A stretch of 64,000 nt of DNA from an uncultured Eubacteriales bacterium (GTDB taxonomy: Bacteria > Bacillota_I > Bacilli_A > RF39 > UBA660). Both the position numbers and the translations under genes were made by a program. The notes beneath the pieces were generated by a model. It did not search any database and was not told the origin of the DNA. It was given only the letters and a program-made list of their open reading frames with translations. Positions within the stretch are counted from its first letter, which is position 1; every line of letters begins with the position of its first letter. Positions 33,739-33,769 of this stretch are shown here, piece by piece. Where the stretch lies: contig CAUTAF010000007.1 in the NCBI GenBank assembly GCA_963536495.1, positions 5,803-69,802 of the forward strand, read 5' to 3'.

Positions 33739-33769
33739 ATATATATATATATATATATATATATATATA
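33739..33769. repeat. (TA)15 dinucleotide microsatellite in the promoter region of paralog 2
   Basis: A perfect 30-31-nt alternating AT run that ends 22 nt upstream of the ATG. Confidence 0.9.

Follow-up and report, generated by a model that had tools for sequence, protein, structure and literature searches.

Within the window, the 64,000-nt stretch of DNA analysed here, a perfect (TA)15 tract separates a transcription terminator from the second of four tandem genes for internalin-like surface proteins (paralogs 1 to 4). The tract is probably a contingency-type simple sequence repeat (SSR) that forms the spacer of a sigma-A-type promoter of paralog 2 and would switch expression of this gene; its length changes between assemblies of the locus that are otherwise nearly identical, and it occupies the position that the promoter spacer holds in the three sister genes.

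Surface-protein array

The array consists of four tandem ORFs on the + strand, the sister proteins being 39-47% identical to paralog 2:

30811..33708 (+), paralog 1, 965 aa
33792..37439 (+), paralog 2, 1215 aa
37546..39828 (+), paralog 3, start revised from 37519
39902..43846 (+), paralog 4, 1314 aa

The true start of paralog 3 is probably the ATG at 37546, the 37519 of the ORF list being wrong; this ATG has the Shine-Dalgarno (SD) sequence GTGAGG before it and MKNKK... after it, agrees with the orthologues, and leaves space for the promoter-like site TTGTCA-16-TGgTATATT. Each paralog contains a signal peptide, an LRR region, Rib and TSP3 repeats, and a coiled coil, and in three of the four, NPKTG precedes a C-terminal hydrophobic segment and basic tail (read directly for paralogs 1 and 2). 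The C-terminus of paralog 2 reads ...NPKTGIKTYSLIILFIIFINYLVFKKNKNYIR*, comprising the NPKTG sortase motif and, after it, a TM segment and basic tail; the four-way alignment does not show NPKTG throughout, and paralog 3 differs at its C-terminus. NPKTG is presumably a clostridial-type sortase motif, and together with the hydrophobic segment and the basic tail it is predicted to constitute a sortase anchor, i.e. a cell-wall sorting signal.

Pfam places TSP3_bac and Rib domains in paralog 2, and the LRR region matches Internalin-J of Listeria (PDB 3bz5) with an E-value of 2e-14. The Pfam LRR_4 score is 22.5 bits, below the 27-bit cut-off, and NCBIfam internalin_J gives an E-value of 1.4e-7 with 30 bits against a cut-off of 1700 bits; since both scores are below their cut-offs, the proteins are considered internalin-like and not internalin orthologues. 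The product of paralog 2 is predicted to be a surface-exposed, internalin-like, sortase-anchored LRR protein of the adhesin type. It resembles Listeria InlJ (PDB 3bz5) in having a signal peptide, an LRR domain, a repeat stalk, and a sortase anchor; however, it carries NPKTG instead of LPXTG, and its stalk is built from Rib, TSP3, and coiled-coil modules.

The neighbours of the array include dnaK/grpE/hrcA, ftsA/ftsZ, mutS, nusA, and infB, and these housekeeping genes indicate that the locus is chromosomal. Paralog 2 of the window has the same sequence as P0135, which is found on an 80.6-kb NCBI/ENA contig; among species-representative genomes, its nearest relatives come from uncultured Eubacteriales/Clostridiales MAGs and are 28-40% identical.

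The tract and its flanks

The sequence CA(TA)15ATT spans positions 33738-33772 of the window, with (TA)15 at 33740-33769 or, equivalently, (AT)15 at 33739-33768; TRF reports the tract as 33739-33769, with a period of 2, 15.5 copies, and 100% matches. With a GC content of 23.5%, the window should contain short TA runs; the longest TA run in 100 dinucleotide-preserving shuffles of the window, however, had a mean of 5.2 units and a maximum of 8, versus 15 in the real sequence. The second-longest real dinucleotide runs in the window contain 5 units (at 3256 and 17160), and no homopolymer of at least 9 nt occurs in the 64 kb. The (TA)15 tract is real, is the sole tract of its kind in the window, and goes beyond an effect of composition. 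Between the end of paralog 1 and the start of paralog 2 the following elements are found:

33702..33736 (+), intrinsic terminator of paralog 1; 12-bp stem, 4-nt loop, TTTTATT
33735..33740 (+), -35-like hexamer TTGCAT; its last T is the first base of the tract, 3/6 consensus match
33740..33769 (+), (TA)15 dinucleotide tract, putative promoter spacer; length-polymorphic, n = 9-21
33766..33771 (+), perfect -10 hexamer TATAAT; last two TA units plus AT, 20 nt before the ATG
33781..33785 (+), Shine-Dalgarno AGAGG; 6 nt before the ATG

In the terminator, 33702-33713 pairs with 33718-33729 (dG -11 kcal/mol, z -5.73), a fold matched by none of 200 shuffled sequences, and the 5' arm of the stem includes the stop codon of paralog 1 (33706-33708); the consensus terminator scan skipped this hairpin only because it demands three G-C pairs. 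Equivalent hairpins are located 3' of paralog 2, paralog 3, and the DAGK gene. The order after the hairpin is UUUUAUU, GCA, the tract, ATTAAGATAAT, AGAGG, six bases, and ATG; TTGCAT is the sole TTG motif between terminator and tract, and the GATAATAGAGGTA block at the Shine-Dalgarno of paralog 2 is common to paralogs 1 and 4. An initial annotation of this DNA had described a perfect 30-nt alternating tract 22 nt 5' of the paralog 2 ATG (33792), with which our coordinates agree; the terminator it placed upstream of the tract is confirmed by the hairpin (z -5.7), and the other three paralogs do lack such a tract, their spacers holding only (AT)3-4.

Putative promoter architecture

All four paralogs share a layout of terminator, -35, spacer (16-17 nt in the sisters), -10, and 17-21 nt to the ATG, with these promoter-like sites:

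Paralog 1 (+), TTTAAA (30761), 17 nt, TATAAT (30784); -10 to ATG 21 nt
Paralog 2 (+), TTGCAT (33735-33740), 25 nt, TATAAT (33766-33771); -10 to ATG 20 nt
Paralog 3 (+), TTGTCA (37501), 16 nt, TGgTATATT (37523); -10 to ATG 17 nt
Paralog 4 (+), TTAATA (39855), 17 nt, TGaTATACT (39878); -10 to ATG 18 nt

The putative spacer of paralog 2 is the tract itself, with a length of 2n-5 nt that equals 17 bp only at n = 11; the (AT)3-4 runs in the spacers of paralogs 3 and 4 are a plausible seed for expansion of the tract. Because the terminator lies 3 nt 5' of the tract and the ATG 22 nt 3' of it, a promoter dedicated to paralog 2 must overlap the tract; the sole alternative is transcription of the tract from upstream. 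We infer, with good support, that the tract is the spacer of the paralog 2 promoter. The promoter-spacer reading of the initial annotation is upheld to the extent that the tract is suitably placed and fits the layout of the three sister promoters. The same annotation had held that a transcription start site (TSS) downstream of the tract would put the tract outside the promoter, which is wrong, since the tract would then lie at about -8 to -45; as the gap between tract and ATG is only 22 nt, any TSS downstream of the tract fits the spacer model exactly, and the tract would leave the promoter only with a TSS upstream of it.

A sigma-70 consensus scan of the window returned 82 sites versus 84.7 in shuffled sequence and has no power at 23.5% GC, and a match-count promoter model run against n found, whatever the value of n, a 3/6 hexamer at 16-18 bp, singling out none; since neither approach discriminates, the ON length is unreadable from the sequence alone. 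There is no divergent gene at the locus, every neighbouring gene being on the + strand.

Tract length across assemblies

Orthologues 81-94% identical to paralog 2 were retrieved by a protein search, and their contigs, together with those of other cluster members, provide 23 further assemblies of the locus; two contigs retrieved via the upstream DAGK gene both end inside paralog 1, before the tract. Eighteen contigs span the tract (window included) and 6 of the 24 end inside or at it, which fits either within-sample length heterogeneity or a drop in coverage. All allele data come from short-read metagenome assemblies, apparently of one large study to judge by the sample names (VALL22-1_SAMEA...); for some of the 18 contigs the same sample was probably assembled twice, and about 14 independent haplotype/length combinations are represented.

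Six alleles have n = 9, four have n = 10, and three have n = 11; the lengths n = 12, 15 (the window), 16, 18, and 21 are each represented by a single allele. These are eight lengths among 18 alleles; every difference consists of whole TA units, and the flanks are conserved. The -10 TATAAT is kept in 18/18 alleles, as is the TTG, which is mostly part of TTGCAT but belongs to TTGCTT in L013 and to TTGAAT (4/6) in L016. The count of TA repeats across strains that had been proposed at the outset, run here on assemblies, is clearly variable (n = 9-21). Four pairs of contigs isolate this variation:

L011/L012, n = 18/21, 0 other differences in 7,653 nt
L022/L025, n = 9/11, 0 other differences in 5,720 nt
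L024/L025, n = 9/11, 0 other differences in 4,619 nt
L023/L024, n = 12/9, 1 SNP in 8,265 nt

In these near-clonal pairs (0-1 SNP over 4.6-8.3 kb, no other indel) the tract differs by 2-3 units, and since the members of each pair belong to one assembly series but to different samples, an assembler effect does not account for the differences. L026/27, L028/29, L007/8, and L022/24 each represent one protein haplotype obtained on two occasions with the same n, and these four identical counts make the tract counts reproducible.

The surroundings of the tract are far more stable. No further indel occurs within the clonal groups in the 4-7.7 kb downstream of the tract; the intergenic region 3' of paralog 3 is length-invariant in 13 loci, the region between paralogs 2 and 3 measures 105-107 nt across loci, and the promoter region of paralog 1 has the same length in 8 other loci. 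No other SSR was found in about 170 kb of orthologous loci, and the tract has remained free of interruptions in lineages that diverge by up to about 16% in their coding flanks (467/2848 nt). Distant relatives of the family (28-40% identity, from uncultured Eubacteriales/Clostridiales MAGs) have no tract in any case; a JGI metagenome pattern scan for the tract flanks gave 0 matches, and a JGI protein-based scan recovered distant relatives only, all without SSRs. Judged by these alignments, the mutation rate of the tract exceeds that of its surroundings by orders of magnitude, and at this level its hypermutability is demonstrated; the description of the tract as a slipped-strand hotspot in the initial annotation is borne out by length changes between otherwise identical sequences and by the eight lengths seen in 18 contigs.

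Mosaicism of the array

The adhesin array (window 30811-43846; L007-L029) is highly mosaic, and the flanks of the tract have discordant histories; identical stretches are interspersed with blocks that differ at about 100 positions per 200 nt, and the junction islands (anchor/terminator/promoter/RBS/signal peptide) are conserved. Gene content also varies (L014-L018; L010-L012): in the P0121 strains ftsA directly follows the paralog 2 orthologue, with no paralog 3 or 4; the P0003 allele is 983 aa long versus about 1216 aa; and the fourth array gene of most strains encodes 1191 aa, starts with MKNKKYLIIAF..., and differs from paralog 4 of the window. In L028 (3700-3925; also in L029) a premature stop at 3718-3720 interrupts the paralog 1 orthologue about 200 nt before the NPKTG coding sequence, and the product may be an anchorless/secreted form or the gene a pseudogene. 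The end of contig L007 (7751-7816), beyond the paralog 2 orthologue, contains the start of a transposase-like ORF (MPRIRKEPNRYWSKEDKLKI), possibly an IS element inserted in the array of this strain.

Two irregular cases were also considered. The split paralog 2 of the n = 11 contig L013 is due to a scaffold gap of Ns and not to a frameshift. P0126 (1415 aa), a database protein in the paralog 2 cluster, was rejected as a case of read-through of the tract; it is a chimera of paralog 2 and a DAGK/YegS-like gene, most likely a misassembly across the repeated array.

Proposed switch mechanism

Slipped-strand mispairing in replication would add or remove whole TA units, and each unit would shift the TTG by 2 bp, or about 69 degrees of helix, relative to TATAAT; the perfect -10 would itself be created by the 3' end of the tract. 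At n = 11 the spacer would have the canonical 17 bp, the only length at which it does so, and this is the presumed ON length; n = 10 or 12 would give a spacer of 15 or 19 bp, for which a weak promoter is expected. For the window allele (n = 15) the spacer would measure 25 bp, and little or no expression is predicted apart from any read-through of the terminator. In a population, this would produce heterogeneous, heritable expression of the paralog 2 adhesin with the three sister promoters fixed. Both the toggling of expression with n and the identity of the ON length are what we infer.

The allele distribution bears on this mechanism in both directions. Fourteen of the 18 alleles are within 2 units of n = 11 (n = 9-12), bracketing the 16-18 bp spacing, and L016, with TTGAAT-17-TATAAT, agrees with the consensus at 10 of 12 positions. 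The commonest allele, however, is n = 9 (13-bp spacer to the TTG) and not n = 11, which counts against a switch tuned to n = 11; alleles up to n = 21, ten steps off the supposed optimum, look more like drift than a tightly used switch, and the weakness of the putative -35 hexamer (3/6) counts against the spacer-switch reading.

The switch could also have two regimes in what would be a commensal gut bacterium, in which n = 9-12 would toggle near the 17-bp optimum and n = 15-21, the window allele among them, would be a faster-mutating 'locked' state, a supercoiling-dependent cruciform silencing or insulating the promoter; we consider this quite unlikely. Equally unlikely is the corollary that length changes would accrue on the time scale of strain sharing between hosts, which is based on identical 7.6-kb haplotypes that come from different samples and are 3 units apart.

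Alternative explanations

The tract could be a neutral hypermutable microsatellite that slips because it is long and pure and has no meaningful effect on expression of paralog 2; together with its variants, in which the perfect -10 works without -35 contact or expression occurs mainly by read-through, this explanation is on the unlikely side. Neutrality would suit the broad range of lengths (9-21) with a mode at n = 9 rather than 11, the occurrence of the long alleles (16/18/21) in one lineage, the weak -35 and the non-discriminating geometry model, and the lack of a tract in distant relatives of the gene family. Bacterial microsatellites under neutrality usually decay by interruptions, however, and here the tract is uninterrupted with at least 9 units in 18/18 alleles, across flanks diverged by up to about 16%; neither the 64-kb window nor about 170 kb of related loci contains a second SSR, and the tract sits exactly at the spacer position of the sister promoters. 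RNA polymerase is sensitive to promoter spacer length, which further counts against a neutral tract. A role in RNA or DNA structure is very unlikely, whether as a (UA)n hairpin, transcribed from an upstream start as part of the 5' UTR, that affects mRNA stability, translation, or termination, or as a cruciform of long alleles that insulates or silences the promoter. The tract is self-complementary, and a (UA)15 RNA hairpin of about -9 kcal/mol would lie beside the RBS; this predicted hairpin, however, leaves SD and ATG free and is missing from the centroid structure, and no U-run follows it, hence it is not a terminator. The DNA hairpin energy goes from -1.8 kcal/mol at n = 9 to -10.8 kcal/mol at n = 21 but is negligible in the short alleles (n = 9-12, 14/18). 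The terminator stem is GC-poor (dG -11), hence some read-through is plausible, yet between 32637 and 33792 there is no + strand promoter-like site among those listed by the scan.

The mosaic structure of the array raises the question of whether the tract marks a recombination boundary between adhesin cassettes at which paralog modules are shuffled, an explanation that is compatible with the promoter switch but is in itself highly improbable. L009 equals L010 over 650 nt upstream of the tract, and downstream it is near L007 (22/2900) and not L010 (372/2858); the tract also lies in an island conserved over at least 57-126 nt upstream and at least 106 nt downstream, with mosaic coding sequence around it. 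The same conserved junction islands (terminator/RBS/signal peptide) are present at the tract-free paralog junctions, however, so homology alone explains the mosaicism, and the clonal pairs alter their tract length without recombination. That the length differences are artefacts of assembly, PCR stutter, or sequencing is the least credible of these explanations and extremely improbable: although the assemblies are short-read throughout, (TA)n stutters in PCR and has low Illumina coverage, and six contigs break at the tract, its 18-42 nt are far below both the read length and the final k of 141, so that each count must rest on real reads. The agreement in count of the four same-haplotype contig pairs speaks against an artefact, as do the 2-3-unit differences that arise within one pipeline from different samples, in whole units and with perfect flanks.

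Comparison with known systems

Among the closest counterparts of the promoter switch proposed here is hifA/hifB of H. influenzae, where (TA)9-11 lies between -35 and -10 (van Ham 1993, via PMC2651432). As far as hif is described in that source, the two loci share a pure TA tract between -35 and -10 (candidate hexamers here) with a 2-bp change in spacing per unit, commonest lengths of 9-11, and a surface adhesion structure as the controlled (here putatively controlled) product. The hif promoters are, in the same description, overlapping and divergent and belong to a Gram-negative organism, whereas the locus studied here would have a single unidirectional promoter behind a terminator, in a tandem paralog array of a Clostridia-type Gram-positive; its tract also has a wider range, up to 21. 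The ON length of vmm, a gene with a similar arrangement, is reportedly about 10 TA units. In this gene of Mycoplasma mycoides subsp. mycoides SC, dinucleotide repeats are described in the promoter spacer, as far as the citing accounts convey it (Persson 2002, via PMC2628566, PMC10502178). Vmm is a small lipoprotein of a wall-less organism; paralog 2 encodes a 1215-aa LRR protein that is predicted to be sortase-anchored.

The vlp genes of Mycoplasma hyorhinis are switched by a poly(A) tract in the promoter of each array gene (PMC10502178). They are similar to the present locus in forming a paralogous surface-protein array in which each gene has its own promoter and an SSR is located in the promoter, but the vlp tract is a homopolymer and occurs in every paralog, whereas here a dinucleotide tract is found in one of the four. 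In pil1 of Streptococcus gallolyticus, an SSR in a leader peptide ORF acts in an attenuation-like manner on a downstream terminator and makes the pilus heterogeneous (PMC3894217). Both loci concern a Gram-positive sortase-dependent surface structure with an upstream SSR and a terminator hairpin; here, however, the terminator is upstream of the tract, and there is no leader ORF between tract and gene.

The Clostridioides difficile surface and signalling genes cwpV, flg, cmrRST, and pdcB undergo phase variation by invertible promoters, and the phase variation reviewed to date in Clostridia is based on DNA inversion (PMC11868660). The candidate described here likewise concerns phase variation of a surface gene in Clostridia; the C. 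difficile systems use site-specific inversion, whereas at this locus there are no flanking inverted repeats and no recombinase gene among the neighbouring ORFs scanned. An invertible promoter (inverton) was rejected, as the inverted-repeat matches at the locus were limited to the terminator stem, the self-complementary tract itself, and weak AT-rich pairings. By its organisation, the locus would be a further instance of the (TA)n promoter switches of the hif/Vmm type; what appears to be new with respect to hif and Vmm is the host lineage, the gene product, the presence of one putatively switchable paralog in an array, and the much wider range of lengths.

Other features of the window

Between the Metallophos gene and tig, positions 17888-20507 contain a strain-specific insertion/duplication of about 2.4 kb. 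It is flanked by 168-nt direct repeats (17971-18138 and 20340-20507, 99% identical), with a second repeat pair of 100 nt (17888-17987 and 19829-19928, 90% identical), and it contains, besides a 258-aa ORF without a Pfam match, a transposase-like ORF of 161 aa (HTH_28/29) on the - strand; L001 has only 156 nt between the Metallophos gene and tig. At 47249-51148, mutS (837 aa, all five MutS domains) is followed by a 461-aa ORF instead of mutL; this ORF matches HopA1 weakly (PF17914, E 3e-5) and nothing in NCBIfam. The presence of mutL bears on the stability of dinucleotide repeats. An 18-nt tandem repeat (TGGACCAAATAACTTTGG; 3.6 copies, 86% matches) is located at 25615-25678, inside a 387-aa ORF (25403-26566) that has no Pfam match in the orthologous loci. 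An Rfam scan of the 64 kb at gathering threshold found no RNA family (no tRNA, riboswitch, or leader).

Significance

SSR contingency loci are textbook knowledge in a few pathogens such as Haemophilus, Neisseria, Campylobacter, and the mycoplasmas. The locus described here is a clean sequence-level candidate for an SSR promoter switch in a Clostridia-type organism that is uncultured, extremely rich in AT, and recorded only in metagenomes, and the candidate switch would act on one member of an internalin-like adhesin array. Public metagenome assemblies suffice for the polymorphism in tract length to be read directly, which makes the tract a ready-made marker of the micro-evolution of the strain within and between hosts; its alleles could also define the spacer tolerance of clostridial sigma-A promoters.
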